Source: Phoronis australis
Taxonomy: Eukaryota > Animalia > Phoronida
Reading direction: 5' to 3'
DNA: 64,000 nucleotides
Assembly (NCBI GenBank): GCA_002633005.1
Contig: NMRA01000001.1
Span: 4,333,180-4,397,179, forward strand
In this document: in pieces, positions 23,801-48,310 of the stretch
How positions within the stretch are numbered: position 1 is the first letter of the stretch
Layout of the letters: the number at the start of each line of letters is the position of its first letter
Position numbers and translations under genes: made by a program
Notes under the pieces: generated by a model
The model's database searches: none
Seen by the model: only the letters and a program-made list of their open reading frames with translations
Told to the model about the DNA's origin: nothing

Positions 23801-26800
23801 CGAGAAGTGTAACTAGTGACTGAAGAGTAGAAAAGAAGTGTAGCCTGTGACTGGAGAGTAGACGAGAAGGTACTGACCCGTGACTGGAGAGTACCATAGG
23901 CAAAAAGTGTAGCCCGTGACTGGAGAGTAGACGAGATGTGTAATCAGTGACTTTGAGAATAGAGGAGAAGTGTAACCAGTGACTGAAGAGTAGATGAGAA
24001 ATGTAACCAGTATCTGGTGAGTAGACAAGAAGTGTAACCAGTGACTGGTGAGTAGACTAGAAGTGTAACCAGTGACTGAAGAGTAGATGAGAAGTGTAGC
24101 CAGTGACTGAAGAGTAGACAAGAAGTGTAGCCAGTGACTGAAGAGTAGACAAGAAGTGTAACCCATGTCTAGAGAGTAGACAAGAAGTGTAACCCATGAC
24201 TGGAGAGTAGAAGAGAAGTACAACCCATGATAGCTACCTTATGCCAACCCTTTGAACCGCCATGGTTATGATTTGGGTCATCGTTCTTCTCCAAATGATA
24301 GTCAACGCCATCTAGTGTAAACTGAGCACCACTGATACGATTAGCCACTCGTCCAATGATGGCACCATAGTAGGGTCCATCTTGTTCATAGTCTGCAAGA
24401 AAATAATCAATGATTTCACCATAGTAGGAACTGTCTTATTCATAGTCTTCAAGAATGTTATCTCTCTACAAGAACTAATTGTGATCAAAGCTTTGTCAAT
24501 ATGCCAATAACTGATATTTGATCATGATGAACATGAGATAAGAATGGAAGAACACTGTTAATATGAACAGTGGTTTGTAAGAAAAGAAAAGAAGTCTATT
24601 CACGATAGTGAGACTGCCTATGCAGGTCATCAAGGAGGAAGGCTAGCTCAAAAGATATCAAAAAAACTATAAATCATGACTACTGAAATTACCATAAAAT
24701 AAATTTACCGACCTTGTGGAGCCACCTGGCTCCTTCTGATGGGTAATCATGTCTGTCTGGTTCCCGCGAAAAATTTGTCACCCTTTGCCTGTGTTCCACA
24801 GACACTAACTGTAAGGCCCTGGACCATGAGTCAGATAGCGTTCAGAAAGCGCATGGCTCAGCACTAACCATCTAATGTCATTGGTTTGAACTCCACAGTC
24901 TGTAATCATCTTAGTGACATAGGACACTCTTTTGACATTGAAGACGTGAAGGTACTGGATAGGGAAAGTTCTTGGTTTGAACGAGGAGTCAGAGAGGCAA
25001 TCTGAGTTAAAGCCAAGAACCCCTCTCCGAATAGACATGGAGGTGTCAGATTTAAACCATCTGACTTATGGTGTAGGACCTTACAGTTGTTGTCTATGAA
25101 GACCAGCAGAGGGCAATGAAATTTTTGCAGAACCAGACAGCCATCAATCCCAATAGAAGGAGCCAGGCAATGTCGAGAAATTATTTTTTAGCAAGACCAG
25201 TAGTCATGACTTATAACTACAGTTACAATTTTATATTTTTTTCACATGAATATTCAAATTAATTAAAATCCATGAATTCTAATTAATTATGCATTTGTCA
25301 CTCCAAAAGTGACCTTCGTGGCCTGAATTGGTTCCTGCCTGCTTTGTGTGCGTGTGTGTGTGTGTGTGATGAATCATTGTAGACATCTATTGCTTGTATA
25401 CTATTTTTTCAAAAATTGCTACATTTATTCGCCCTCAATGAGTATTCTTGGACAATCCTAGATTAAACTAGAACTCAGATGTGTGGGATTTATCCATTGT
25501 TTGATCTGTAGTGGACGGGAAATGGCTGGAGTCAATGACCACACAAACACAAATCACATACATGGTCTAGCTGTGTTTGCCTTGCATGTTGCAGTGAGTA
25601 TTTCCGGATGACATCAATCTCGTTCATTGTTAAGTGTTTGAGCAATCTTTTCGTCTGCCATCACCACCCGTACGCCAATTATCTATTACACTTCCAACAG
25701 TTGCTGAAGCCATTCGTTAATGGGTACCAGATTACTGAATCATAGTGCAACTATTATGGGATATTTTTATAGTACTTCTTTGGGTAAAAATGACCTTAAC
25801 TTAACTTTTTACAAGGAATTCATTTCAAGCGCAAAACAACTAAAAATAAGCAGTCACTGTTTCATTGCTAATGCGGTTAACTTCTCAAATATATGCAAGA
25901 GGACTGCAGATCGGACTCCCTGATAAACAGACATCTTGAAAAACAGCAGGAGTTGTATCAATACATTGATGAAGTACAAGGTGCTGTGAAATGGGTTGAG
26001 TTTTTAATGACAACTTCCATGCATGCTGAATAAGAGTGAGAAAAAGGCAAATAACAGTGCAACTTGTCACAAGCTGACATACAGATAGATGCATCCAATA
26101 TCAAACACAATATGAAGTGTGTGTAAATTTAAAAAGCTAGCACGGAATGATTCAAGCAGCGAACATCATCCGGCATTACTAATTAGAATCCAGGGAAATT
26201 TTTAACGCTAATTTGAAAATTTATCCATGACCCAGACAATCGTAATCTATCCAAAATGATACTGAAATGGTTGCCTTCTCTTTGAAGACTGAGACACTCA
26301 TAATGATATCGCGATAGCCACAACAACCATTGAGCTACATGGTACATGCACAATATCACGTTACCCAGAACGACCACAGATAGCTGATACAGAAATCACA
26401 GTACTACTGAAAGGCCAGTAGCTGTTGACCAAAATTACATTCCATAATTACGTGGCAATCCAACTTTTCCGATGCAAAATTTTTGTATAATTATGTCCGA
26501 TTATTTTTATCATGTACAGAAGTAAAACAGAATGACAAGATACCAGATACATTGTCAAATCCTGGTGTGACATCAGTGAACACGCCATTGCGATCTGGCA
26601 CACAAACAGAAGTAATGATTGCACCAAACTCAATAAGTTGGACAGAGAGACCATTCACATTTGTCAGTGTATACCTACAATGAAAAATGGCAATAACATA
26701 TACATCCAATCTTTCTTTGACATATCTTTAACGCCACTTTAAAAACAAAACACAATCCTTCATTTTAGATCTCCTTCATTTGTGCACCTCATCTACAACG

Positions 26801-27946: not shown

Positions 27947-29521
27947 GCTATACAAAAAGAAGAAGAAAGAACATGTTAAAACATCCTATGGAAGATCACA
28001 AACATTTTAAGTCTGGTCTGCATGCCACCAGTTGGCCACACCACACGACCAAATATTTGTAAATATTCTTTTTATTGACATATATACATAAGGCCATAGG
28101 CCAAAATTATAACATATACAAGATGGTATATTGTCAGGTGCATTACAGACTGGATAGTAGTTCTCCAGTAAGTATACACAGTAAGAACAAAAACCTTTTA
28201 AGTCACTGATGTGCTGGTAATAAAAGATAAATTGTACATGAACTATACACAATAAGACGCAGAGCTCCCACTCAGGTACCAGGGCAAATGCAGGAGGTTT
28301 GGATATTTTTTACAAGAAATTAGACTTTCACTTCAGGGAAAGAGCTTCCAAACAACAAAAATCAAAAACTTCATTACTGCAACATACGTGATGCAATTAT
28401 TTTGAGTCTCTGCCTCATTAAATATCTTATTAACATAATCTGTGGGAACAGTTACTTAAATTTCTATCTCTCTCTGTTATTCTAATTACGGGGTCCAACC
28501 AAGAATAGCAACATGTTAACTTGAAAAGCTGTTGACAAGAGATTGTTACAACACTGTGACCATGGTCATGACAGCTGGTGAACATCGCAATGTTGCGGCC
28601 CAAACTGATGCTTGCGCCAAACTGTTTTGGTGTACTTCAATTTGGCATGGATTGGTGAGCCAAAATGTAGCCTTGGTATAAAGCTGTAAAAAATAATTTC
28701 TCGACATTGTGCACTCAGATCTGTCAAACTGAAAAATAGTTTGTGATTCCTGTCCATCGTTAGTATTCCTGTCCTGCTACGGGACGAAAGAGCGACCAAC
28801 ATACTGTTTTCGAGGCTTCGGAGGCGGTCCGTCTGCCGTTTCTATCAGAAAAGGTGCGTTGTTCCCATTTCCGATTGATTATATAGACCTATGCCTTGTT
28901 TAAGGTGTGTTTGAAACGTGGTTGTCTGCTGCTTATACTTATAGTTGTGCCGATTTTGTTCTTAATACCAGCCAAACCCAGCGAAGCCGAAGGTGAGTTA
29001 GTAACCTGACGGAGCCAAACAGGGCTTTGGGTATTGTAAGTAGTGGGTCGAGGGAGTTGTGAGTCCAGGGGGTCGTGGGTCGAGGGGGTTTTGGGTCAAG
29101 GGGGCTTGTGGGTCGAGGGGGTTTTAGAACAATCCGGAGGGCAGCGATTGCGACCACAGGCGTCCTGAGCGGCACTGATTGGATATAGTGGTCCCGGATT
29201 TAGAGAACCAGGCAGTCACTAAATAATGGGCCCGTCACTTAGTGGATGAAACTGGTTGTCTAAATCAGGGACCGCTAGCCTATGGACTATGGCTATATTC
29301 GACCAGGGCAGATGCAGTCAGACACTATCAGTGGTCTTGTCTCGTTTTGGCTTTTGGCTAAAACAAAGGCAGTCTGGACTTGTGCTAACGTCCTACAGAT
29401 TTAAGCAGATAAATTAACAACATTTTAACTAAATCTTACATTAGTCGTGTTCACTCGTCTCTGTCACCGTAGACTGAAACTGTCTTTGAGGTAGATCTAT
29501 GCTGCAAAAAGTTTGCCACTG

Positions 29522-29545
29522 AGTTCAAAGGTCAAATTCAGGTCA
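29522..29545 (+). promoter_or_regulatory. Candidate nuclear-receptor element (DR1 + DR5 of RGKTCA half-sites) in the GALM/hnRNP L divergent promoter region
   Basis: agttca-a-aggtca-aattc-aggtca, about 180 bp upstream of the hnRNP L ATG. Confidence 0.35.
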
Positions 29546-29721
29546 AGGACATGATGCGAACTCTAATTTTCATTTATTTTGTGTTGTTTTGTAATAGTAC
29601 CCATTATTAAGTTATTTTAGTGTCAAAATTGTTCTTTTGTTGCATTATTTTAATTCATAAGTTGCAATATTTAAAAAACTCCACGAATCTCGCAACAACG
29701 CATTTGCCTGTTCTCTGCAAA

Positions 29722-32700
29722 ATGGCGTCATACGAGGGACACGCTACGAAGAGACAAAGAACAAATGTTGATGGACATGGTGTCCAGTCTGGACAAAGGG
29801 TAGTATGAGGCTGAAGTTTAAGCATAAAATTTGCATTTGCGTTTGATTTTTTTGTTAAAAATTATGTAGTCAGCGCTTGGCTCTATGTGCCGACCCGCAG
29901 GCGCATGTCGGAAATTTTTGGCCCAGTTTCCAATTCCAATCCAAGTCCCAAGTATATACTGTAGTCTGTAGACTGTAGTGTAGCCTTAGGCCAAGAGGGG
30001 ACTTTTCATATTGGCGCTCCTAGAATAATGAGAGCACGGAAGTGACTTCCGACTGATTCAGACTCATATTTGGGTACCCAAGAATTCAGTTACCACACGG
30101 TAATTGTTCATAAATATAAAAGCAGAGCAACATAATCCACTGGCCCATCTGCCCATCCCTTGTTGTTTAACATTGTCATTGATTCAGGGATATACTTAGC
30201 CACTCGCCTAGTCGCTAATGCGAGTAAAAATGTGGCTGGGCGAGTAGAAGGTGACTTGGCAGTCGCCCAGGTGGCGAGCGAATTTTCAAAGAGCAAAATA
30301 TATATCGTTTCCCAGATGAATATGAATAAATTTTCTCCTCCTTGTGCTGTTTTTATCATGAATTTAAGGTTCAGTTTGGTCAGCATGTCGATGCTCCAGC
30401 AATAAAAAAACATAAGCGCAGTGCGATGATACCGATTCAGTAGATGTCACCCGTTACACGATTCGTCTAGACAAAAGATCACAGAGTGTGGTTGTGCTGA
30501 AAGGAATTAGTGGACTAGTCCGAAACGAAAAATGGGGGAATGGCAGAAGACCGGTCCGTGTGCTCACACCAACTGAAATACCATATTTCTTGGAACTGAT
30601 TTCTTATTGTAATGTACTATGTCATTTTAGCCAAAATTATTTTATAAATAATAACATTCGTCCTTATAAGCAGCATACTGGTCAACGGGATTGTATTGTA
30701 TCTTTCCCATACAGATCTTCTCCTTCAACAGGAATCCAGATTACTTTGTACACGTAAAAATCTGCGAATGGAAACTTGGCCAGTGTTAATGAGCACGTGG
30801 TCAGGAAGCGCGCTCTACGGCCTACATATATGTGGGCCTGCTACTCTGGCAAATGAACTGATGACACGCACACACTCGCTCACTCGGCGCACACCTGCAG
30901 ACTAACTTCAAAACAAATGTCACGTGACAACAACATTTGTGTTCGTCCAAATTTTTCTCGTGTTGCGGGGTGCGATCTAGCGCAGATTTTTACTCAATTT
31001 GCGGTTAATCCCGACTCCACAGGAACTTAAAAATCGTAGGAACGCTATTTGGAAAAGTTAAGGAGGATTTCAGGTAATTTGTTGAGTCGAAACTATTCAA
31101 GCTTGCTGTTTCCCTACGTGCGTAGCCAGCACGCAGGTATCATGCACTGGCACCCGCTTTAGCATTGGTTGATGTAACCTTGGCAGTCATTGATTAGCTT
31201 TACAACAACGTGAAAAAATGGCGGAATATGAACGATTTTTAGCCTTGTCATGCAAGTGGCGTAGCAGCAACTATTTCGTTTCTGCAGTAATGTTTAATAG
31301 CCGCATGCTTGAAGTACATACATGTACAATAAACACATATCTGGCCGATTTAACCGGTGTGTTATTCATACTCTATGAATACAGGACAGTATCGTAAACA
31401 AAAGTCACCGACAGTAAAAAGATGCACTCCGAAAAGGCGCAACCACAATTTCTGGGATTCACACCTCCAGAACATAAGTTTTAAGCACCGATTTGTCTGT
31501 ACAACAGAGCTTGGAATTTTCCACGGAAACGCGGATTTCTGCTTTTTTCAAATGTTCTGTCCGCGCATTTTATTATATTTCGTCGTAAAAAAAAATTGGA
31601 TTTGATATAAAATTTCTGCGGCAAATTGCTTTCTTACTGCGGCGTTCACCTCGAAAAGTGAAAGTTGCTGTTTACGTTTCGGAGGAACGTAAATTGTCAA
31701 CATTGCCGGGGCATCTGGGATAGCGTGGTGGGATTTTCAATGGCAACTCGTGTTATTGTAAACCGTGGCGACAAATACTACGGCTCTGCAGCCAAAAATG
31801 TGTGGGTTAGGAGTGCCTGAGTGGACGGACGAGCTAAAAGGATGCTGACGCATGCTACTGATGGTGGTAACGTTTTTTTTTTTTTTAGTCCTCCCGTTTT
31901 TTATCGGGGAAAGGTTCACATCGACCATTTCAAGACTGGCGCGCATGATAAAAATGATTTGCGATTTTTGTGGGCACAATTTGTATACAGTCGAGCCTAA
32001 GATGGACTTTCTTAACCCTTGGAGATGGTTTTCTTTTAGGATCAATTTGAAGATCCTCACAAGATGGCGCCATCGCCAGTGTTGCATGTGCGTGGCCTCA
32101 AGGAGTCAGTAATGGACCAGGATCTAATTGATGCTGTACAAAGATTTGGCGATGTCAGGTAACACTTGGTGACTACATCAACGAATTGATCCAAAAAATC
32201 TTCAACACAACCCACTGATGGGTACACAATGCACAAGTGACTGTCTTGTTAAAAGTGTTGTTTAACGCTCATTTTTATGCTGGCCACTATCAGAGTAGTG
32301 GAAACAGTGGGTATAGAGGTGGAGGGGAAGCTATATGATGTCTAGGCTCTTGGGATTAGTTGTAATTATCTTGTTCTTGTTTTAATTAGGAACTTTCGTA
32401 TTCCTGTAATAGCAGCAGTGTTCTCCACAACAGAAAATCCAAATTTGTCGGAAATGCCCAAACACCAACAAATGTGTCACAGGTGTCCAATCACCAACAA
32501 ATGTGTTGGAAGTGCCCAAACACCAACAAATGTGTCTCCGAAGCGAGTGTCAGCTAACATCTCTCGATAGTGCACATTTACTTGCAATGCTACCCAACTG
32601 GCATTTATTCATATTCAATGGGATTAGCGATTGAACAAATTTGTGGTAAAGGAAAAAAGTTTGTCATGTGGAAAAAAATGAAAAATGTACTGTTTGATAT

Positions 32701-35700
32701 CGAACATGCCAAGGACTTCATACGTGAACTGGTAGATTCCTTAATTAAATAATTTATTAATTGTAACCCATTATAAGTTATCAAAATATGTTGTGCATTT
32801 GGTATTTCTATTCTGAAAATCTAACCAGTAAAGACATAGTTAATAACAGTGTTTTCTGCAATAGAATTTACAAACACACCGAACTAATCAGCCACTGCAA
32901 TATCAAGTGACTTGACTTGAGAATGTTACGCAAGATCAAAGTTTGTTTCAGCTGCAAAATTAAGATTACTAAGATTACTAAAATCTAAAACTCATTAAAA
33001 ATCAAACTATCTAGCTCTACCCACAATTTTTGTTACAAAACGGATTCCTTTAGATCTCCTTAGATCTTTCTGGACTTGCTCTATAATTGAGTTTTCTTTT
33101 CTAGCGACGTTGTTGTCATGCCCAGGAAAAGGCAAGCTCTGGTAGAATTTGAGGTAATATTCAATGGTTGTACACTTAATTACTTAATGTGTTTAATTTA
33201 GTGTCTATTATGTGGTAACTTAAACTGAATCTTACAGGGATTCCCGCAGTTTAATAACCAGTTTTCTCCATTGTACAACAGGTATCAAATTGGTTCTCAA
33301 ACCCCGGGTCTCCTATAAGTAACTATTGCCCATTTCTCTGTCCAATTGTTGTACTTCCAGAAGTGTGTGATTAAGTTTTCTGAGGTTATTTCCCTTTTTG
33401 TTGAAGGAAATCGCCAGTGCTCGCAACTGTGTCAACTACGCCCAGACCAATCAGATCTTTGTGTGTGGACAGCCAGCCTTCTTTAACTTCTCTCGCAGCC
33501 AGAAGATAGAGCCACCGCCTGATGGGCAGTACGTACTCACTATTGGTCGATTTACATTTAGCCTCATTTAAGACAACACCAGAGTCGTGTGTTAATTTAG
33601 ACAGCACTGCAGTGTGTGATGCTCATTTAAAATAACAGGCAGCACTTCAGTCAGTATTTATTCATTTGAAATGGCACTACAGATTTTTATTTGTATTAAG
33701 ATGCACTGCTGCGTGTGTGTTCTTGTTCATTTAAGCTATCTGTAGTTAGCAATTCTTTATATTTTAAATATCAATGTAGTCTATAATCTGCGCACTCTGA
33801 TGTTTCATATGTGACTGTCGTATACAGTTTGTTTCTTCATTTCTCATGTGTGACTGTCATATACAGACTGTTCATTTCAGTCCGCGACGTGGTCAAGAGG
33901 AGAACCATATCTTGCTTTTCACCATCAGCAACGTCCAGTATCCCATCACTGTGGTGAGTAAACCTCTAGTCACCCTGTGTATGTGTGTGAATAAGGTCGC
34001 ACATTGCACCGCGAGGATCTCCAAATTTTATTCCTCTCAGAATGAAAATACGGACATGTTTTTCCCTCAGGAAATTATCGTGCATTTCCACGTCGCCGAG
34101 CTCAGCCTTTGCATAATTCTTTGCCACTGTGCTAATTCAAATAATACCTTACAGATGTCTCCCTTGTATAATTCTTTGCCACTGAGCTCATTCAAATAAT
34201 ACTAAACAAAGCTCAGCCTTGCATAATTCTTTGTTGCTTAGCTCATTCAAATAATACTAAACAAAGCTCAGCCTTGCATAATTCTTTGTTGCTCAGCTCA
34301 TTCAAATAATACTAAACAGACATTGAGTCATTACAGTCTCAGACTCGACTGACCGGTAAACCCCCATCACCACAAGGTTGGACTGACAACATAGTTTTTC
34401 CACAGTTTACTCTAGTTTTTCAACTGCTCTTGGCCATAATCTTATGGTATACAACACTTTGCACATTGGCGCTGGCATGTAGCCTACCACGGAGGTTTAA
34501 CAACTCACAAGTCGCGTATTTCTTTGTGAAGAGGCTTGCATCATAGCCTGTTTGTGGCTTAATAACCTTTGCACTGTACGTGCCACTTTGTGTTGAACAT
34601 TCCGGGTCCCAGCTGTCCTGACACTGTTGTTGACAGGCTGGCAATAATTTCCTGGATTATACTGGCCTTATGTGGTACTTGATGACCACTTACTTTCCGG
34701 AGTGGTCAAAACTGTAAAAAATGACGTCTGAATATAGTGTGGCTGTCTCAAACCTGACTTCTGTAACGCTTCACTTATGTGTTCACAGAGCGTTCTTCAC
34801 TGTTTACCGTTAAACGTATCAAACACTACTTTAAGCTTTCCAGTTTGGAATTCTCCCAGTGTGGATGGAGTGTGTGATTCATTGCTTGAACTAACAATTG
34901 TCATTGTACTCTGTTGCAGGAAGTCATGTATACAATTTGTAGCCCAAGTGGATCAGTGCTGCGAATTGTCATCTTCAAGAAGCAAGCTCTACAAGTTATG
35001 GTTGAATATCCTTTACATGTGTGACACTATACTGACTAGACTTGTCAATATAGTGCGGTAGTAGCCCTTTGTTTACACAAACTTTGTTAAAGACACGACT
35101 AGACTTTTTGTTAGCGAGCTTGATACTAGCTACTGTTTTTATTTGTTTTGTTTGTTTATTGTGTCTCTTGGTCTTTTATTTCATACCTGCACACCAGTAG
35201 CAAGGAGACAGTTCTGAAATTACCAACGTACCAAAAAGAAACCTGTTCGGGCCTGGTTGTCCGCTCAATATCTCAAAAAAAACTGTCACACAGAAGTATG
35301 TGACAGAAATCCGGCAGCACCAGTTGATTTTGAGGTGGGATTCAACCACTAAAGCACCCTCTAGTGGCCACTTTGTTCTCGACAAGGTACTCTTCACTAT
35401 TTTTTTGGTGGAGAGTATTTCTGAATGATGTCTAGCTAGAGAACCGATTAATAGATTTCAATGAGACTTGAAGCAGGATTATATGATGACAATGCGTGGG
35501 GCTCAATCAATTTTCGGCAGTCGTGAAATTTGGCAGAAGGATTTAGGGGATCGCTCTGATGGTGCATGCCCCGCCCAGGTGTGGGGTTTTTCCATATTTC
35601 GTATGAAGAAAACCGATTGACAGATTTCGTTGAAACTCAACACAGGAATATTTGATGGTAATGCGCTGGCACTAGTCGATGTTGGGACGAGTGCTACCTC

Positions 35701-38700
35701 TATTGTATTCCCTAGTGGCCGTTTTTTGGTCTTCACAAGGGGCTTTTTCAATATTTTTTTAAGGAATAGTGCTTCTGGTTTATGTCTAGCGACCTGATTG
35801 ACGTATTTCAATGAAATTTTGACACAGAGGTATCTGGTGGCAATGCTCTAGCGCCAATCAACTGACCTATCACAAGCTCAGCACCCTTGTCTAATGTCGA
35901 CTAACAAACAATAAGTTTTACCTGGCAACATGTTTGTCGGGTAAAATGGCGGCTTGGAAACGAAGGTGTGTCAAGAATAAATTAGTTCTAAATGGTCAGT
36001 TAAGCCGTCACTCAAAATCCTGGCGATAGGTTAATTTTCAAGTGGATTTGACTACTGCAACAACCCTGGTGGCCATTCCATTTTGGGTATGATGGCATCT
36101 ATCAGTTTTGAGTAGATACGTAGCGCTGTATATAATGACAGTAAAGACGAGAAGTTCCTTAACAGTGGTTACGTTTGACAGTATTGAATCGGCGCGTCGT
36201 GCTCGGCAAGCATTGAATGGTGCTGACATCTACTCGGGATGTTGCACACTCAAGAAGATCGAGTATGCGAAGGTGAGTGACTGTGTGAACCAATCTCGTT
36301 CTGACTTTGTAACTCAGTCTCATTCTGGCCCATGACCCAGTCACAATCAGCCCTGTGACCCAGCCACAGTCTCTCCTGTGAGGCAGTCACAGTTACACAG
36401 TGACCCAGCCACAGTGTGGCCTGTGCCACTTATTCTCTGGCTGCGTCAAAGGGCCTTAGTTTCAATGCTGTATTGAAGGAATGTTATGCGCGTGCTAAGC
36501 AGTCTGCTTTAGTCTGGTCAGGTGGTGGAGGGTTTTAGGTCTTGTATTTGCCTTGTTAGACAGTGTCTGCTGAGTTGGTCCTCAGTGTTTTTCACATAGG
36601 TAATTGAGTGAAGTTTGGTGTTGTTGTAGACCAGCCGTCTGAATGTGTTCACTAATAACAGTGAGAGTTGGGACTACACAAAGCCTGATCTGGGTGAGTA
36701 TGATGGAGTCTGTCCTCAGCTTTTTACGGTACAGATGGACACTTAGCTAAGTGCTGTTTAAAAACACGTTTTATAATTGTTGAGAATACTTAACTTTAAT
36801 GTTGCATTTTGAACTTGAGGTAAACTGTTGATAATTTTCATTTTTAGGCTCGAATTTTATAATTTTCTTTTCCTGCATTGAAATGACCAAAAATATCCAA
36901 ACATTAACATGATTGTCTTATTATTTACTAAAAATTATGTTCACATTCAAAGAAAAATTTACAATATACTTGGAACATATGTTGAACAGCAGTAATTCAG
37001 CTATTCAGAACCATACATTTCTGTAAAAAACCATACTTTCTGTCCACAGACATAATCCAGACATGTCATTGTACTCAACAACATCAATTGCTTGCTATAC
37101 TATCATCTTTACTGCAGCAGGCAATTGAAGAAGTATCTGACAAGTTGACAACCACTGTAGAAACTAGTCATCTGATTGTGATTTAACCTAGTCATACATG
37201 TTGTTATCATCTGTCCTAGCCAGATAATTACTGTTGACACACAGCTTCAAGTCACTGGGATTATGGCACATTGTTTATACACTGTCATTTACGGTGGGAC
37301 ACACTTGATGAACAGATATCAACCTGTCCACTCTACTGAAGGGTTCATAATTTGTGAAGAAGACAAACACCGACACATCTAGATAATAGCAAGAAACTGC
37401 CTGGTCGCTGTAACATATGAACACAACAGAGTGTAGACATGCTGCCTTGAACAAGAAAACATGCTAGACAGTCACAACAGAAGAACCACAGTGACCCTTT
37501 TATGACTGTACATATTATATAAGTGGGAGACAGGAGATATGGTGCTGGTGGCCTGCTCTATGCAACACACAGTGATTCTTTCATGACTGTATACATTACA
37601 CATGCGGGAGACAGGAGATCATGGTGGCCGTGTGACAGGGACTATACAGTGAAGACAAGTCAGGTTTGAACTGAACTAGTTGCATGCTGGCTCACAAGAT
37701 ACAGACTATACTAAAGTCACATCTATTCTAACCCAGATCTCGGTCTGCATACACCATATATAACTATGTAAATGATTGTACATGAAGGCTTCACAGTTAT
37801 CAAGAACAGTTTCTACTATTACTCACTTCCTAGTCAATCCGTTGCATTGCAACTTTGTGGCAAGGCTTTGTAAATGAATGTCAAAAGTCATTAGACAACA
37901 CACTGTAAGATAGGAAATGTCAAGAGACTTGTTGTTGTGTAAAACCTACAATATTAGTAGAGACATGTGATGACACGTGACAATATTGGTACAGGCTTGT
38001 GATGACAAGTGTACTTGGTACTACTGTCATTAGCTGCGTACAGAAACAGGCAATGCGGGTGGGCTATTCAGTGCTTATCTTCATGTAACCAACAGTATGT
38101 ACTAACTATTCGGGCTGTGTTTATGTAATCTGGACGCACAAACATATGAGGGTCTATTGCGAAGTTGTACAAAGATAGCTATCAGTTTAACCATACAAAC
38201 TAGAACATGTTACTTTCTGTTGAAAACATGCTAAAAACAAACAGTGGGAGTAAACAACAATTACAACCAGAAACATTGTGTAGTTTATCACCAGCCTAAT
38301 TAATCCCTTGGGTACATGGAGTTATACATCCTGCCAGCACACAGAACAAAGTAATTAGACTGAGAGACGGGTGTTAATGATAGCTTTGTTCTGTGTCGAC
38401 AGTGATGAAGATGGTTGGGGGATGATAGTCTGACTGCAGCTCAGGTAACCCACAACTGCGCGCCACCCATGTGTATGTATGTATGTATGTTATCAGCTTT
38501 ACCCTGTCTAGCTCAGCTTTTGTTTAAAGTACATTCCATATCTGTTGAGAAATTGTAAATGTTAACTTATTGCTTTACGGTTCCAACTTTCGAATTTTGA
38601 GATGTATTTTGAAGGACTTTAGTAGCTAGGGGTTGAATAGGGTTGATTTTGTAATATTTTGTAATTTTGGCTTTGTCCTGTTGTTTTTCATCAAAATTGT

Positions 38701-41700
38701 ATGTGGAGACGTGTAATGTGTTTGGATTGTGGTGTAATGATACTTAATATGTTAATGTAAAATCCATCTTATTTAATCCGATTATGTGGATGTGATCACT
38801 TGCACTATTTGCCCATGCATCTGCTATAATACTAGTTGTAATGTTTCGCTGACGAAGCTAAAACATGGTCAGTATAACATGCCACAATCAATCGTTTTAT
38901 CATCGCAGGTAAAGAAGAAGCCTTGCCCCCCAAGAAGAGCTTGCTTCCTGACCCTTCCTTCAGTGGGCCCCCGGCATATGGTAAGTTATGCTCTCACTGT
39001 GCCGTGATGGGTAATGCTTTCCATAACTTCTCAGCAGTCGTCAAAGCCTATGCATTTCGCTCTTGTTCAGATACCACTAGTAATGCATTCCACTAATGCC
39101 CAGTCATGATGACAGGCAATGCTGCCTGATGGGTAATCTCACTAGGGTCCAGGCGTAGTGACGGGTAATCTCACTAGGGTCCAGACGTAATGATTGGTAA
39201 TCTCACTAGGGTCCAGACGTAATGATGGGTAATCTCACTAGGGTCCAGACGTAATGATGGGTAATTCCTACGGTGTGTGACTCACATTATGAAGGTTGCA
39301 TAGGAATTCGTCATGACTCAACTGAACAACTATGTCACAAAGTGCTGTTTGGTAATGGCTATGTGACGACGTGATCCTGATGTCTGTGTGAGCATGGGTG
39401 TCATGAAATGCTTGGCATGGTGTATTTGAATGTTCTGACTACATCTGTATTGAACATTTGCATACTCTGCAGTGACATTTTGATACCCAAAAATAAACAT
39501 TCATATTCATACATTCAAACTAATAAACATAGGTACTCAAAATTCATATTTGCAAGTGTAGTCCATGAAATTTTGTGAATGTAGTTGGTACGCAATTCTG
39601 TTAAGTGTAATTTATGTTAAATTCAGTGATTGCATGCAGACACTTGTTGCAAATAAGCGGGTACAGCAAGAAAAATTCACGCTTAGTTCTGAAATTTTCA
39701 AGATTTTACTCGTGACTAGTTTGTATAACTCTTGAGGAGTCGGGTGCGTGTTTCATTAAATTGTCTTGACCTCGTTGGTGTCTCCCGTGAACTGGTGTGG
39801 CTAACTGTTAGTTTTGGCATCAGTCTCCATTTAGACTCTGTGAACACTGGATGATAAATTGTCGTGAAACTGGCGCCAAGCCCCCACAGCGGGAGTGGTA
39901 AATGTGTTACCATAGTGTGACGACTGCTTTGAATGCAGTCTAAACGGTTACAATACTACGGTTGTTACAGAGCAGCGTGGTGCAGGCTATGGTGCCCCCA
40001 TGGACACAGACTATGATGACGGCTATGGAGGAGGCTCTGGGTATGGGGCTGTCTACGAGCCTTATGGACGTCCTCAGAGAGACGGCTATGCCAGGGGCCC
40101 CGGAGGACAAGGAATGGCCCCATTTGGTGGTGCACCACCCAGGGGACCTCCTAGGGGTCCACCAGGACAGGACCATTACCAGGTGTGCTATAATGTATGC
40201 ACGTGTATGTGGGTGCATTTTACTTTTTTGTGTTTGCTTTTGTGTCGAACAAGTTCCTTGCTGAGTATTTAAGAAACTTGTCAGTATAACAGAATTCAAC
40301 CATGGTGCAAAAACAATGGGTGAAATGATAGAGGTTGGAGCACCCTCTTAGAACTACGGATGGACATGGCTGTTGTGTTGCTGTCACTCATAAGTGTCAA
40401 CTAGCGACTGGCCAATCCTCTTATTCTCCCAGTGTGGTTTTAACCTGTGACTGACTCGGTTATTCTCACCCCGTTGTGTTTGTTGCAGGACTTCCACCAG
40501 TTCCCTAGGGATAACTTTGGTCCTGGGCCACGTGGAGGCATGGCAGGGCAAGGTCCACCCAGTGGTCAACAGCAAGGTATGAGCTATACAATTACTCATT
40601 CATGTTCTACTTGGTCTGTACGTGTCATCCACAGTTAGTCTTGAACACTAGTGTATTGTGTCCACATTTCATTAATTAAAGTGGATGTTTTACTTTTGTC
40701 CAGTATATACTGAAAAGTTGCATCATTTCAACTATAGTTCGATGTTTACTTATTAACATAATAAGTGCGTTTTGTTACATTTTTGATGAAATGACGAACC
40801 CACCCATATTGAGCATTACTTGGCTTGTGAAGGACTAGACAATTTCATAGTGTTAGTTGGTGTGTTCACAGGTGCTGTGTTGATGATGTATGGACTGAGC
40901 CCTGACAAGATGAACTGTGACAGAGTCTTCAATTTGCTCTGTCTCTATGGGAACGTGATGAGAGTAAGTACACTTCCTGTTGATGTAACGCTACCTGCAA
41001 GATGGTGTAAGTCTGATCACGCTGCCTCTGTAGTGTGGTTCAACAGTCTCATCACACTGCCCCAGTAGTGTGGTTCAACAGTCTCATCATACTGCCCCAG
41101 TAGTGTGGTTCAACAGTCTCATCACACTCCCTCAGTAGTTGATCACATTTTAGGCCATAACAGAAGCACAAACTTTAAAAGTAGCGTGTAAGTAAATAGC
41201 GGCATATTTATCTAACGTTTCGGTTTATTACTTCAAACCATTCTCAAGGAAACAGTTCACATACTCAAACAAGCGACACAGGTGGAGAATGGACTGTACA
41301 GGTACACATCAAAATTCATTGTGAGGGGGAGGGACAAGAAATCAAAACAGTTGGATGGAGTCAGAAGCAGAAACGATCTTAAAAAATACGATATCCCTCT
41401 TTGTCAAAAATAGAGACTTCAGCGTTCCTTGAAAAATTTGAAAATGTGTTTTTCAGAGCTAAATTATAAAGCTAAGTACTGCAAACAACATTCCAGACCT
41501 GTGTTGTGATGTAGCTAAGAGAAAATAATCAAACAGAATAGCATATTTTTGTGAAAATTTCCTTATCTGTGGATGGAAGTGGGAAAAACATTGTGACATG
41601 TTTACAAATGTCTGGATATTATTTTTGTGCTCATTAAAATCTCTGTGATCATCAAGGTCTTTGAAAATTACAACAGTTTCGAAATAGAAGTGGCAATAAT

Positions 41701-44700
41701 AAACTTGTGTCCTGTTTAAAAAAACAACTTTTTGTTTCGGCCTCCTATCCTTGTGTTGTCGTTTCATCGTGTTTCTTACTCTCATTAGAAAGGATTTCTA
41801 GTTGACAGTTTGTTATCGCTCCAGACCAGGCTAAGCGTGCTAGTTTTAACTACCGAAACAATATGGCGCCAAAGGCAATCCAGGCATTTTGTTTTAATGC
41901 AGGAAAGGATTAGGCCGTGAAGGTTATACTATGGAAGAACAAAGATTCCAATTCAGAGTCTCGTTTCTGACACCATGGCTGGGTTTCAATGCAGTTTCAC
42001 TGTATAAGTTTGATAGATTCATGACGCCAGGTGCATTGTTCGTCAATGTCATGTGATGTGTGGTAATGCAATGTTGTTGTTACTATCCAGGGTGTAACTC
42101 CATACAACCTTGCTGTGTACATGCCTTGTAGCTGCTTAATCAATTGTTAAAAAGAGTTGATTCATAAGGTGATCCATAGTAGTGAAGGTTGTCATTGTGT
42201 TAGTTCATGTTTCCATGTGAAACCTAGTATTTTACTTCTCTAATATGGTGAGTTGACTTTCCTAAGTGTTGGTTTGGCTGTGTACTAATATTAGTTACAA
42301 GTTGCCTTTGCTTGAACAGATTTCGCCTGTTCACTCTCTGTATGTTCTTACAGATCAAGTTTCTGAAGAGTAAAGAGGGCGTGGCCATGGTTCAGATGGG
42401 AGACCCCATGTCTGTTGACCGTGTATTACAGAACGTTAACAACAACTTCTTCTTTGACTCCAAAGTTCAAGTGGGGTTAGTTCAGCTTATAATTACACTT
42501 CTTCATATCCGTTTGTGTTGTCAGTTGATTAACAGTTGAATTCTTTACAACAGAGGATCTAACTACCGGTCTGCCGTTTAGTGGGAATTTTATTCTTTGC
42601 ATGTACCACTGTATTCACCAAGTTTTTTGATAATTGGATTTCCATTAAGAGACAATGACATCTTTCCAATTTTGAATGGATTTGATGGATTTCAATCAAA
42701 CTTGAATCAGAGGCATGTGACCACAATACATCGACACCAGTTGATTTTCAAGCAGTTTTGGTTACTGCATTACCCTGTAGTGGACATATCAGTCTCGATA
42801 AAGTGCTTTTTAAGTACATTTAGGGGGAGATTGGTTCTGAGGAAACTGATTGGCGGATTTTAATGTGACTTCCATCTGCTGTCACCAGTCAATTTTCAGA
42901 TGGTTTAGACCTCTTGTGCACCCTCTAGTGGCTGTTTGTGTCTTAGCAATGGACTTTTCACTATTTTCACAGGGAAGTGATTTTCTGGAAATTTTGTAGA
43001 CGACCACTTGATTGCTTTCAATGAAAATTTGCTTGGGAGAATGTGACAACAGTGTGCAGTGATCAGTTATTTTTCGAGCAAATTCGACCACTGCAGCACC
43101 CTTAGTGGCCGCCATTTTGCCTGGTTGTCCTGTAGTACTGTGGCCTGTGCCAGTTGTGTATCTGATAATACTTTGTTTACATTGCTCATGTCGTTATGTT
43201 GTTCTTTGTGTCTCGTTTGCCAGTTCACCAATCATTAACACCATTCACTTTGTATTACACCAGCTATTCTAAGCAAGCCTTTCTTCAAGACGTGCCTAAT
43301 CCCCACGAGTTGGCGGATGGCACGCCGTCATTCAAGGACTACATGGGCAGCCGCAATAACCGCTTTGCCAATGCTGAGGCAGCCAGTAAGAACCGTATCC
43401 AGCCGCCGGCTAAAGTTCTACACTTCTTTAATGCTCCGCCAACTCTGGAGAAAGATCAAGTGTTTGATGTGAGTTGTCATATACTACTACATTTGTACAA
43501 TACTAAGGAGAAGCAGTAATAATTACTATCATGTTGCTTAACTGCCTCCTATTTATTCTAGTTTGCTATCTTAAAAATACTTTCGTTATCAGACTTATAC
43601 TGTGGACTAGCTTCCATAGTTTCTGTGTCTCAGTAAGACGAGTGAAATTGTGGATTTTTAACATGTGCCATCAAATGAATTCCTGAGAATTGTGTGTCAA
43701 AATAATGACCCGGAAAAGATGCATTTCGTGCAGAAACTGTTTGGCTTGAAAACTGCTAACATTGCAACTGGAAAACGTAATTATATCATGCAAATTTGGT
43801 TTAGATGCTGGGCAGTATGCAATGCTCGTTGGATAAACAAAAAATTGAAATTTGTCAGGATTCCCTCTTCATTTTAAGGGAATTCCCACTGTTTGCAGCT
43901 TCTCCTGGAATCTTACATACCGTATTCGCCGTAATAACCGCCCATGCCCCTATAAGCGCCCCCCACGCGTTTTCAGACTTTGCTGAAATAAGCGCCCAGT
44001 CCATGAACGTGTACATGCGAACAATGACGTACCTAGTCCTAAAACTCGGCTACAGTAATGTCTTCAATTTATCAAAAAAAAATTTGCACGGGTCTTCTAG
44101 ACCAACAGCGGCACTGCTAGTTTGTATTTAGCCGTGACTTTACACTTCAAGGTAACGCAGCGCTTCAAAAAGAACGCAACATCGTTGCTACTCACGTGAT
44201 GAACGTATCCCACTATAGGTCTGACCTTTCAGTAGACACATCGACTGTCTCGTGAATAAAAATAACTCTGTGTTAAACGCACGTGGCCAGGAAGCGCGCG
44301 CTACATACATGAACCTGTCATCAAAGACATTAGTCGGGAACTATCCATTCATGAAACGGCTAGCATAGCATCGATAAGAAATGAATATTGGCACTAATTT
44401 CTGAGTTTCTAATACTATAAAACATGTTTGCGTTATTTTTGACATGGATTGTTTGATAATTGGTGTTTTTAGCCGAATATCCGATAAAATGACAACTGAC
44501 AGTGAATGCTTACACACCCTTACACCGAAAAATAACCGTCAGATAGTTACGTACGCATCCGGCTACACGGCGACTAATATGGGCCTTACCAAGACAAATG
44601 TCGAAAGTTTTTAGCACGAGACCGGCAAGTGCTGAATGAAACACGCTCTGGTTTAGGCCTACTGCTTGTGCAGATTTCTTTAGACACATCTAGCTAGTTA

Positions 44701-46884
44701 GATTACGTGGCTCTGGCCAAAAGACGGTCTCTGCTTTGGCAAATGAACTCTGGTGACACGCACGCGCTCGCTTACTCGCAGACAAACTTCAAAACAAACG
44801 TCACGTGACAACAACATGTGTGTTCGTTCAGACATTTTTCTCGCCGTGTTGCCGATCATACATGTAGATGGCACGATGTTGCACAGATTTGTACTTAAAC
44901 CTGCCGTTAATCCAGACTCCACGGGAACTTAAAAAATCTTAGAGACGATACTTATAAAACTTAATGAGGATTTCAGGTAATTTGCTTGAGTCGAAACCAT
45001 TTTTATTCAAGCATTGAAGTCGCCATATCGACGGCGATTTCGAGGCAGTCAGTCGGCGAGTTTTCGCCCTGGGATTTCAGCACAATTTTCTGTAAAATTA
45101 TCGTAATTTAGCAGCAAAGTTTGATAGCAAGGCACCACAGTTTTGTTGAAAGTCTTTCATAGATTACAGATACATCACTGAGCGTAAATTTGATGAATCT
45201 TAGCTTCCGATTTCACCCGTTTTGGAGACCGGGTTTCAACCGCCTTTGGTTATAATAAGCGCCCCCCTGAACCGAACTTTTCTAAGCGCCCTGGGCGCTT
45301 ATTACGGCGAATACGGTACATGAGATTTCAACTTCTTTTGTACCTCCGAGTTCCTAGGATATTGGAACACCCTTGTTAGTTAGTAAGCAAAAAGTAAATT
45401 ATTTCTTGAAGGTTTTATAACAGTATAACACTGTGTAGTTGGTGACTGTTACAGACCAGTGATGTACTTGCTGGACATTTTCCTCAGTTCTTGACCTATA
45501 CATTTGTGTATTGCAGATCTTCACTGATGCTGGGGCCAAGTGTCCGTCGAAGTTCATGAAGTTCCCTCCAAAGAGAGAGAACAGCAGCAGTAGCACTGGT
45601 CTGATTGAGTGGGAGAACAAGGCTGATGCAATGGAGGCACTGATCCTGGCCAACCACACTAGTATCCCCAACCCCAGTAAGTCACCTTGATCCAGCCCAA
45701 CCCCACTAATATCCCCTGTAAGTCACACGAATTCTGGCCAACCACTCTGGTATTCCCAAACCCTGTATGTCACACTGATTCTGTCCAACCACACGACTAT
45801 CTCCACCCCCAGTAAGTCGCAGTGATCCTGGTCAAGCACACTAGTATCGCCGGACCTTATATGTCATTGTTACTAGTATCCTCAACCCCAATAAGTGGCA
45901 CTGATCTTGATGGACCACACTAGTTCCCCCAACCGCAGTAAGCCACACTGACCAACCACTCTAGTATCCCCAAACCCTGTAGATCACTGATCCTAGCTAA
46001 CCACGCTAATATCTTCAACCTCAGTGCTCAAATTGAGGCGTCACAACAGTTTATCTCTTTGCATTCTTCTATACCTCTACTATTCCCATTATTCACCCAA
46101 TTCCAGTGTACGTGTGCTGTATAATTGATTTTGTCCTGAGACATTTTGATTAAGTTCAAGTGCCTTCCTCCTCCACTTACACGTTTTCTGGACCAGTCAC
46201 AGCTTGTCAACACCTTGATGAGTGGTGCACATAACAGTGTATTGTCCCTATGGTGAAAGGATGAAAGCAGTGAAGTTCTGTCATCTTACATTGGTCAAAA
46301 TCTCATTTTTGATGGCACATACACAGACATGGTGTCAACCCTATGTTTTAATGCAATATGAAGGGACTGCATGCCTGCAATTCCAAGTCTCCAAATTGTC
46401 ACTAAGTACTTGCCTATTTACAGAGTATGCATGAAATCATTGTTTGTGCTCATGAATAGCAATGACCCTCTAAAGTCTTGCTATTCATTTATGCTGCGTG
46501 ATAGCAATGCTGCTGTTCCAGCCAGTATTGAGGTGACTCAATTTGGCATGCCTGTGGCATGTACGTTATCATGAGGTGCTTGATTAATAATCCTAGCTAG
46601 AGGAATAGTAGTTAGCCTTTCCACTTAGAAAATTTCCCGTCTAATTCCCAGTCATAATTTACGGCTACTAATATATGATGCTTGCATGATGGTAAATTGT
46701 ACTCAATCGTCATGACGCGTGGCTCACTGAAGGTGGTAGGGCAGCTTTAAGCGAACTAGTTCTACAATTTCTTTTAACAAGTGAAATGCTGTGTCCTTTT
46801 AATAGATGTATTCTATTTTCAGATGGCAAGCACCCATACGTGTTCAAGTTGTGCTTCTCTTCAAGTCCTATCCTCAATCAGTAA
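29722..46884 (+). CDS. HNRNPL: Heterogeneous nuclear ribonucleoprotein L / L-like (4 RRMs); coding exons 29722-29799, 32040-32158, 33105-33153, 33407-33528, 33881-33953, 34920-35005, 36173-36272, 36630-36693, 38909-38980, 39971-40182, 40489-40576, 40872-40963, 42354-42475, 43264-43468, 45517-45676, 46823-46884
   Basis: The spliced translation contains MASYEGHATKRQRT, PSPVLHVRGL, MPRKRQALVEFE, NHILLFTI...YPITVEV, LNGADIYSGCCTLK, RLNVF..N...WDYT, a Gly/Pro-rich linker, VLMMYGL...MNCDRVFNLLCLYGNV, SFKDYMGSRNNRF...ASKNRIQPP.KVLHFFNAP, GLIEWE...AMEALILANH and PYVFKLCFSS. All exon phases are compatible. The first donor could be at 29800 or 29803. It is the invertebrate co-orthologue of HNRNPL/HNRNPLL. 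Confidence 0.95.
30760..31110. repeat. Dispersed repeat in hnRNP L intron 1, sharing sequence with the interior of the 43920-45316 element
   Basis: ggcaaatgaact...acttcaaaacaaa.gtcacgtgacaacaacat.tgtg...ggaacttaaaaa occurs at both ~30848-31100 and ~44738-45010. Confidence 0.7.
34097..34320. repeat. 55-bp tandem repeat (~4 copies) in an hnRNP L intron
   Basis: Unit gctcagccttgcataattctttgttgctcagctcattcaaataatactaaacaaa (starts 34211, 34266). Confidence 0.85.
35006..36172 (+). other. U12-type (minor spliceosome) AT-AC intron in hnRNP L RRM2
   Basis: The 5' site is ATATCCTTT at 35006, the branch site is TTCCTTAAC at 36155-36163, and the terminal AC is at 36171-36172. Splicing restores ...QVMVE/FDSIESA. 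Confidence 0.93.
38403..38444 (+). other. Candidate poison (PTC) cassette exon of hnRNP L
   Basis: ttgttctgtgtcgacAG | 42 nt | GTaacc. In the phase-1 frame it reads V M K M V G G * *. It is preceded by a CA-rich intronic block. Confidence 0.55.
39005..39265. repeat. ~32-bp tandem repeat (tgatgggtaatctcactagggtccagacgtaa) following the donor at 38981
   Basis: About 4 near-perfect units at 39128-39265, plus degenerate units nearer the exon. Confidence 0.85.
41030..41138. repeat. 35-bp tandem repeat x3 (tagtgtggttcaacagtctcatcacactgcccag)
   Basis: Seen directly, about 65 bp after the donor at 40964. Confidence 0.9.
43920..45316. mobile_element. ~1.4-kb non-autonomous Tc1/mariner(pogo)-type element, TIR ccgtattcgccgtaataa, TA target duplication
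   Basis: ta|ccgtattcgccgtaataaccgccc ... gggcgcttattacggcgaatacgg|ta, with subterminal taagcgccc repeats. No transposase ORF. Confidence 0.85.
45637..46027 (+). repeat. ~47-bp degenerate tandem repeat (~8 intronic copies) copied from the 3' end and donor of hnRNP L exon 45517-45676
   Basis: The exon end cactgatcctggccaaccacactagtatccccaacccca|gtaagtca is repeated, e.g. cactgattctgtccaaccacacgactatctccacccccagtaagtcg. Confidence 0.9.
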
Positions 46885-47045
46885 GACTAGACTTTCCATG
46901 AACAGCTCGTAATGCCGCGACTAATTAGACGATACTTTTCGTGAACAGCTCATAGAGCAGTAAGACGAGACCTTCCAAGACCTACGAACAACTCATGAAT
47001 AATAAGACAAGACCTGCCGTGAACAAACCATAGTGCCGAAGACAG
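46880..47045 (+). repeat. Degenerate ~40-bp repeat starting at the hnRNP L stop codon (3'UTR)
   Basis: Recurrent taagac.agac.tt.c.tgaacagctc.ta units, about 4 copies. Confidence 0.65.
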
Positions 47046-47732
47046 GAAAATCCCCCCATTAGGACTTTTGGTGGCTGACAAAGAATGCTTGCTCGTATTT
47101 CAAGTCGGTGGCCGATCAAGGTTCTGTATTCAGCCTTACAAGATATTGAAAAAGACCATTATTTAATGCTGAAGAGTTCCCTTGGGGGCTTTTTGATACA
47201 CTTGAGGAAAATAGATGTTTCCTGTAGAGGCTCTTTGGAAATGATTGTCAGGGTCGTGGTGAGGAGTTTTCAGCATTTGTAATCTGTCTAGAGCTGTTGT
47301 GGACATTTCAGCGTGGTTATAGTCCATTAAAGTGCATTGTCAAACTTACAGTAACTTCTGTACCGATTCACACTCACTATTACTTCAGTTAATCATGCTT
47401 GTTGATTTATAGTGTCTAGGGATCTTGTAGAGTCTAAGCAACTTTGGTCTTATAACTATTGTGTACATAACGGAATTAATAGAAGTCTTAGAGTAACATA
47501 AAGTTATCCTTTGTCGAAATGCTCCTTTGTTGACCATGTCTGCAGTGTTGTTGAATCAGCCTCATCTGGCTGGAGCATTGTGCGCCTGCTGTTGGCTGCC
47601 TTCTGTTTCCATCAGGCTGAACTAGGATTTAAGGTGTTAGTTACTCTCATGTAATCTCAACCTGTAGAAATATTAACGTTTTTAGTGTTTTATTTGTAAG
47701 TCACTGTAAGATTTTATATTTAGAGAGGTTTT

Positions 47733-47738
47733 AATAAA
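47733..47738 (+). terminator. Candidate polyadenylation signal of hnRNP L
   Basis: AATAAA about 850 nt after the stop, following a U-rich tract. Confidence 0.45.
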
Positions 47739-47996
47739 AGCTGAAGTATCCTTCATTTACAATGGTTTCCATGTAATTGCTCTACTGATGCCACCGCACG
47801 TTCAAAATGTAGACCATTCCTGTACATGTGTGTCAGAGATTGAACAAACAGGCACCCATCATAATAAACTTTTACCAAAGAGGATGAATTCCCCCCCCCC
47901 ATCCAAACATACTCTCACTTGAGAGGATAGGTGAGGATGAAATACCCAGAAAGATGATGCTTGAGAGGTGTGCCCCTTCCAACTTCTGAAATTTAG

Positions 47997-48310
47997 TTAA
48001 AATGATACTAAACCCCATTTTGATGATTTCAACCAATCCTTACTCAGTCACCTGCTAATGCAACTAAAACTGGTACTTTCGTGTCACCTCTATTGCATAT
48101 TGTGGTTATCATTGGGTGGTCATTCCCTTTTAATGTCCAGTTACTGCCTAAAACACGCTTGCCCGTGTAGCAGATTGTAAGGATTTTTCATATTTTGTTC
48201 CAAAGGTTTACGAGTTGTCGAGAGTTAAGGAACATTATTTTGTTTCAGAGAAGTGGACTACAAAGTCGCTTTTAAAATTTGTTGACAGGAGGAAACGGAT
48301 TTGATTGAGT
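47997..48310. mobile_element. Kolobok-like MITE copy 4 (diverged, right end eroded)
   Basis: ttaaaatgatactaaaccccattttgatgatttcaaccaatcc...cacctgctaatgca...cacgcttgcccgtgtagcaga. Confidence 0.6.

Follow-up and report, generated by a model that had tools for sequence, protein, structure and literature searches.

The hnRNP L gene of the phoronid Phoronis australis contains a 42-nt cassette exon with in-frame TGA-TAG (exon, 38403..38444; stops, 38423-38428; + strand), a poison exon by anatomy, whose joints were found in all three raw RNA runs and which is spliced into approximately one-fifth of hnRNP L messages. All positions refer to the window, that is, the whole 64-kb stretch of DNA that was analysed. 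The exon lies behind a long ACA-rich block, and we consider it fairly probable that the two form a self-limiting switch, in which hnRNP L would bind the block, raise inclusion of the exon and thereby send its own message to nonsense-mediated decay (NMD); binding, feedback and decay are the parts of this reading that we infer.

The gene extends over 29722..46884 on the + strand and was modelled as 16 coding exons encoding a 568-aa protein of the four-RRM type. Each of the three raw runs contains RNA joints for all 15 introns, with ends as modelled. When exon 14 was compared with PDB, all five matched chains were hnRNP L, and the same exon gave 178 matches in the protein database, the best named of which were hnRNP L of oysters, octopus, Lingula, and a nemertean (75-80%). 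Pfam matches to RRM_5, RRM_8, and RRM_10 were obtained on four of eight single exons of the gene, and the whole protein shares 46% identity with primate hnRNP L over 570 columns. PTB proteins were absent from the best 120 matches listed as well as from the five PDB matches. In a 34-protein tree (quick search; composed without echinoderm, hemichordate, or PTB rows), the gene forms its own branch among lophotrochozoan hnRNP L with an SH-aLRT value of 92. It is a member of the hnRNP L family, a four-RRM protein closest to hnRNP L. An earlier tree (support 0.69) had suggested that it could be a second oyster-type paralog, but the full-length tree (quick search) did not bear this out.

Several other features of the locus were observed along the way. 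Intron 6 (35006-36172) is an AT..AC intron that is spliced in RNA (8, 15, and 22 reads), and its ATATCCTT donor and TTCCTTAAC branch-like site place it, by consensus, in the minor-spliceosome type. A donor of this type was also found at the corresponding position in 9 of the 12 loci checked, including cnidarian-like, tunicate-like, and vertebrate LL loci, the other three having been missed by the search pattern. At 36250-36262, exon 7 has one additional Lys in the otherwise invariant CTLKIEYAK of RRM2, which appears genuine because the reads there list no indel. Interspersed repeats, with reads from both strands and many differences, are found in introns 1, 6, and 14 (~30750-31100, 35930-36040, and 43900-45400, respectively), and short tandem or near-tandem intronic repeats are found at 34160-34320, 39125-39270, 41030-41140, and 45660-46030, the last of which comprises several copies of the end of exon 15 together with its donor. 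Upstream of the gene, 24000-25100 contains tandem 31-nt repeats and, by eye, a decayed retroelement-like stretch.

The host of the cassette exon is intron 8 (36694..38908, + strand), which is partly retained in RNA as judged by sense-strand depth. It follows exon 8 (36630..36693, + strand), which encodes TSRLNV..WDYTKPDL at the end of RRM2, has a phase-1 donor and is, by the loci compared, the homolog of the vertebrate exon numbered 6; the next constitutive exon supported by the gene model and RNA joints, exon 9 (38909..38980, + strand), starts the Pro/Gly linker. A preliminary description of this DNA, made from the letters alone, had proposed an AG..GT-bounded 42-nt segment with in-frame TGA-TAG at 38403-38444, and RNA confirms its ends to the nucleotide and its stops as in frame. 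Joined to exon 8 in phase 1, the exon reads V-M-K-M-V-G-G before TGA (38423) and TAG, so that the protein ends at 237 aa, just past RRM2, and the stop stands 970 nt ahead of the last junction with eight junctions downstream. With its 42 nt the exon keeps the reading frame, and the stops are its own.

Both junctions expected for such an exon are present on the sense strand: 36693>38403 is covered by 5, 4, and 1 reads and 38444>38909 by 3, 4, and 2 reads in runs X2, X3, and X4, and the skip joint 36693>38909 by 18, 10, and 15 reads (43 in total). Inclusion is 0.18, 0.29, and 0.09 in the respective runs and, when pooled, 10/53 by the upstream joint (95% interval 0.09-0.32) and 9/52 by the downstream joint, or approximately 18%, a value based on tens of reads from approximately one-fifth of each of three runs of one study, in which reads spanning both joints may count twice. 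Contig set X1, which does not contain the exon piece, was left out of the evidence. Between 36100 and 40600, the joints of the 42-nt exon are the only ones listed in addition to the constitutive joints (listing threshold, 3 reads).

The region immediately upstream of the exon (38371..38402, + strand) contains a branch-point-like GTGTTAAT, a bypassed AG (38382-38383), a short pyrimidine tract, and the used AG, RNA starting the exon at 38403; GTGTTAAT is a putative branch site by its likeness to the consensus. The pyrimidine tract had been called weak in the preliminary description, which is true of the acceptor as a whole when scored by a weight matrix but not of the tract itself, whose pyrimidine fraction (0.65) lies inside the normal range of the gene (0.47-0.82). 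With a matrix built from the gene's own 14 GT-AG introns, the acceptor scores 0.3 versus 4.7-17.2 for the gene's own sites (an in-sample comparison) and ranks 25th of the 118 AG in intron 8, and the donor scores 5.8 and ranks sixth of 150 GT. A better-scoring AG located 19 nt upstream of the used acceptor, directly after GTGTTAAT, is bypassed. Weak splice-site scores such as these are usual for a regulated exon.

The ACA/CA-rich block occupies 36940..38402 on the + strand, is densest at ~37234-37633, and is the predicted landing zone of hnRNP L. ACA occurs at 58/kb in the block and at 22/kb in the other 14 introns, in agreement with the CA enrichment that had been anticipated; over the 1.46 kb this corresponds to 85 occurrences where the rate in those introns predicts 32 (p 6e-13), which makes ACA the most enriched of the 64 trimers, and the block is the highest-ACA 1.4-kb window on either strand of the whole 64 kb. 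The tetramers GACA, ACAT, ACAG, AACA, ACAA, CACA, and TACA are enriched 2.4-3.4 fold, and there are fewer T runs than expected. The five motifs quoted for this stretch were all located (37363-38133). Its characterization as A/C-rich over ~1.4 kb and dense in ACAC/CACA/ACAT holds with regard to the ACA excess, whereas the A/C content itself is just mildly raised (0.53 vs 0.48). CACA/ACAC occurs 36 times, compared with a mean of 12 after mononucleotide shuffling and 43 after dinucleotide shuffling, the latter indicating no excess. Since dinucleotide shuffling yields the tetramer counts as well, the signal reflects a general, dispersed excess of CA and AC steps and not one of long CA repeats, and the longest CA-type run in the block is ACACACA. 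We take the motif set ACAC/CACA/TACA/ACAT to be an hnRNP L-type cluster, and a CA-type cluster is present directly upstream of the 42-nt exon. The end of the block, previously placed at 38490, moves to 38402: ACA counts per 200 nt are 12, 19, 10, 9, 8, and 14 up to the acceptor and 2, 0, 3, and 1 past it, and the flank at 38520-38800 is indeed T/G-rich (43% T, 10% C).

Within the block, sequence comparison revealed two 59-nt copies (37487..37626, + strand; 83% alike), a local duplication of ACA-bearing sequence. A transposon or repeat origin of the block was rejected, as no other copy of it is present in the window, its longest open frame has 70 codons, and its reads are stranded and unique, unlike those of the repeats at ~35930 and 43900-45400. 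Rfam gave no matches over 29000-48000, which leaves a structured RNA family for the block unsupported, and intronic polyadenylation was rejected on the absence of AATAAA/ATTAAA from intron 8. Sense-strand depth in the block amounts to 7.0-7.9% of the depth of exon 10 in all three runs, versus zero in those bins of introns 7, 9, and 10 that contain intron sequence only; unique bins of introns 5, 6, 12, and 15 have a depth of 0-2.5, versus 2.3-8.0 in intron 8, and intron 8 is covered downstream of the 42-nt exon as well in two of the three runs. Intron 8 is therefore spliced slowly or partly retained.

Autoregulation of human HNRNPL through exon 6A was reportedly described by Rossbach et al. in 2009. 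The human protein is reported to bind intron 6 just upstream of exon 6A and to activate this exon (PMC7547044, PMC8652244), as well as to cross-regulate LL (PMC8652244); exon 6a is described as NMD-reactive with a cognate eCLIP peak (PMC6547761), and its autoregulation is also treated in PMC10297297. The preliminary description had placed the human intron after the RLNV..WDYT exon, a position that is upheld by the tails of vertebrate L and LL proteins and by a vertebrate LL DNA locus (L061). Among the best 120 of 157 shorter relatives, hnRNP L entries from a mammal (ground squirrel) and three birds (P0146, P0137, P0166, and P0150) share one conserved short tail right after WDYT.., and a mammal (mouse-like), a frog, and further LL entries (P0186, P0187, and P0185) share another; both differ from the tails in this set that represent intron read-through. 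In the intron that follows the WDYT exon, the LL locus contains, at a distance of 3.5 kb, an 83-nt AG..GT exon encoding the P0187 tail (15/15) and a stop. Its RLNV..WDYT exon is the fifth coding exon in view and would be exon 6, a number that we infer, if one more exon lies upstream. The vertebrate L tail would correspond to exon 6A, and the intron that holds the 42-nt exon is, judged from these comparisons, orthologous to vertebrate intron 6. Truncated invertebrate proteins among the same 120 of 157 have tails (P0121, P0173, P0184, P0156, and P0181) that fit intron read-through or are ambiguous, and the tails of the relatives have no peptide in common.

As in human HNRNPL, the window thus combines an orthologous gene, a phase-1 intron, and a stop cassette exon after the RLNV..WDYT exon with CA-type sequence upstream. 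It differs from human exon 6A in belonging to a lophotrochozoan, in its frame-preserving 42-nt exon with stops of its own and no sequence likeness to the vertebrate tails, in a block of dispersed ACA without long CA runs, and in that feedback is here a proposal. The poison exon of vertebrate HNRNPLL (PMC8652244; L061) likewise lies in the same intron, but L061 lacks an ACA block (17/kb), and HNRNPLL is reported to be regulated by its paralog hnRNP L.

The orthologous intron was further compared by using a degenerate exon pattern against metagenome contigs, which yielded 101 stretches, 80 of them with long flanks. All 16 loci read have a phase-1 intron at the same position. From 26 genomic non-redundant loci chosen for enough downstream DNA (not independent of one another and biased toward long introns), 13 have an ACA peak of at least 20 per 400 nt in the orthologous intron, versus 3 of 48 background 2-kb tiles. 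These include 8 of the 11 loci of a protostome-like clade A, which falls weakly near annelid rows in the tree, both loci of a second gene group (L025 and L034), and L044, L004, and L002. Both L044 and L004 are ACA-rich throughout the locus, and their candidate exons, picked by eye after the ACA peak had been seen, are weak evidence; the pattern of these candidates was not found in L068.

Clade A offers two conserved intronic blocks. The first, aligned in six loci with a mean identity of 0.74, consists of AG, 99-113 nt, and a GTAAG donor, with in-frame stops in 6/6; the second, aligned in five loci with a mean identity of 0.72, opens with 24 almost invariant nt that end in AG, continues with 45-47 nt containing an in-frame stop (5/5), and closes with a GTA donor, a second conserved donor following 35-37 nt further on. 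As controls, flanks show an identity of 0.43-0.44 and the next coding exon 0.84. On passing the acceptor of block 2, ACA falls from 23-31 to 7-12 per 500 nt. Six loci of this clade (L003, L016, L023, L028, L045, and L054) contain two distinct conserved stop-bearing exon candidates per intron, each behind an ACA-rich stretch; neither block was found in L032 (4.0 kb of sequence) or L053 (2.1 kb), which belong to clade A by protein. Stop-bearing candidates in all these related loci are read from DNA, and chance is expected to place stops in intronic candidates.

A tunicate-like group is represented by L036/L039, which have 72 of 78 residues in common with Phallusia and Clavelina and 64 with vertebrates. 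In the orthologous intron, L039 and L073 are identical over 204/204 nt, compared with 47/61 (77%) in the coding exon and no alignment in the rest of the intron. This element, located ~1520-1723 nt (L039) and ~1332-1535 nt (L073) downstream of the WDYT codon, combines a GTAAG donor with either of two putative acceptors, so that the exon would measure 62 nt and contain a stop or measure 23 nt and shift the frame, and it is a candidate for an ultraconserved poison-exon element, L039 and L073 representing either two species or two copies, with conversion or an assembly effect also possible. The ACA rise is slight in the tunicate-like loci (19 per 400 nt), and the intron is no richer than the remaining locus. 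In the second gene group, a conserved CA-rich block (73% over 248 nt) is found ~1500-1700 nt downstream in L025 and ~660-850 nt downstream in L034, and since a GTAAG donor closes this block, the exon may include the CA-rich sequence.

The cnidarian-like loci L040, L027, and L058, which are sister to a protein clustering with an octocoral entry, have a short intron and no ACA block, and no ACA block was found in three hexapod-like loci or in L061. Among arthropod-like genomic loci, L007, L014/L038, L080, and L093 lack the host intron, and in L063 it is ~60 nt long. Searches with blastn and nhmmer detected no cross-phylum homology of intronic elements (best E 0.7-0.9), and no intronic element of the other loci could be aligned with the window. 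The word GTG(C/T)TAA(C/T), which precedes candidate exons in the window, clade A, and tunicate-like loci, was discarded as a sign of homology, being just branch-point-like. Other bilaterian lineages appear to have a similar layout, with conserved stop-bearing exon candidates in the same intron.

In the mechanism that we favour, hnRNP L protein would load on the ACA-rich block upstream of the 42-nt exon, by analogy with the human protein, for which binding to CA-rich RNA is reported (PMC7708053), and the fly ortholog Smooth, reported to bind a CA-rich motif (PMC5694756). Once on the block, it would delay the splicing-out of intron 8 and favour the weak exon, presumably raising and not lowering its inclusion. 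The included message, whose resulting 3' UTR of ~1.9 kb reaches up to the signal at 47733, would then be subject to NMD under the junction-based or the long-3'-UTR rule. It is likely that the self-limiting hnRNP L loop known from vertebrates runs in invertebrates too.

It is also conceivable, though we think it unlikely, that the poison exon is genuine but under the control of a different factor or, through cross-regulation, of a paralog, or that hnRNP L bound upstream represses it, in which case the feedback would be positive. Long CA repeats are not what distinguishes the block, which is instead rich in ACA, ACAT, GACA, and ACAG, and CA-rich RNA is reportedly also bound by IMP3 (PMC7708053) and YB-1. 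Moreover, hnRNP L located upstream of cassette exons is reported to be generally repressive (PMC7547044), because of which the direction of regulation is not readable from position. Against another factor stands the fact that the gene harbouring the strongest CA-type block in 64 kb encodes the best-known splicing factor that binds CA, and that the block precedes a stop exon, as it does in human; and although oysters have two hnRNP L genes, the full-length tree places the gene of the window apart from the second oyster copy.

The main control could instead lie in the ACA block causing intron 8 to be retained or detained in the nucleus, with the 42-nt exon as a by-product or a slow-splicing intermediate. 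The block at 7-8% of exon depth in every run, the coverage that continues past the exon in two of them, and a reported effect of hnRNP L on intron retention (PMC7547044) fit such a scheme, which nevertheless seems quite improbable, considering that the two exon joints occur at similar rates (10 vs 9 reads), as in a finished cassette exon, that intron 8 has no poly(A) signal, and that relatives have conserved exon-like blocks. We regard it as very doubtful that the included form escapes decay and yields a tissue-specific or dominant-negative 237-aa protein with RRM1 and RRM2 only. A form that is degraded efficiently would be expected at lower levels than the 9-29% inclusion seen without NMD block. 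This counts against the decay reading, with 29% reached in one run, and the stop falls just past RRM2; the tandem stops, the eight downstream junctions, the ~1.9-kb 3' UTR, and the absence of a peptide common to the tails of relatives argue the other way. Least credible of all is a functionless cryptic exon, or splicing noise, next to a chance compositional patch, for although the splice-site scores are weak, the reads few, and the comparison set without close relatives in which conservation of the exon itself would be seen, an exon with one fixed pair of ends and the sole additional joints listed in 36100-40600 is included at ~18% across three of three runs, behind an ACA excess of p 6e-13, in the same intron as the vertebrate exons, and with conserved blocks in other lineages.

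Taking the self-limiting switch as the preferred reading, its layout probably descends from the bilaterian ancestor, its sequence having been rewritten in each lineage, and the loop may be over half a billion years old. A more specific history is put forward tentatively, at a little less than even confidence: a single origin in the bilaterian ancestor after the cnidarian split, followed by >550 million years during which vertebrates, tunicates, and lophotrochozoans retained the CA-rich block and the poison exon in one and the same intron, the one after RRM2, despite complete rewriting of the sequence; within tunicates the element would have become ultraconserved, one protostome lineage would have doubled it, and several arthropods would have lost it, in some cases together with the intron. 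The presence of the ACA block across loci is patchy and without a cross-lineage sequence match, and because no homology is detectable across phyla, sequence does not decide between ancestry and convergence. The loop of RPL10a concerns a ribosomal protein and involves another cis element and another type of event. Reported from nematode to vertebrates (PMC4937301), it is a precedent for an unproductive-splicing loop common to protostomes and deuterostomes, and poison exons of splicing factors are reported to be gained and lost quickly (PMC11062102).

In the literature searched, represented mostly by titles and the starts of abstracts, hnRNP L autoregulation is described just for mammals and no invertebrate hnRNP L poison exon was found, although the original exon 6A alignments may reach beyond vertebrates. 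The type of system is already known; what is new is a spliced instance in a lophotrochozoan, together with signs of the same layout across bilaterians. The exact coordinates given here make a direct test possible, and the ACA block with the drop behind it provides a simple, alignment-free rule for finding the exon in any animal genome. Together with the protostome-like and tunicate-like candidates, the lophotrochozoan case would date the hnRNP L loop to the protostome-deuterostome split, or it would mean repeated convergence on one intron.
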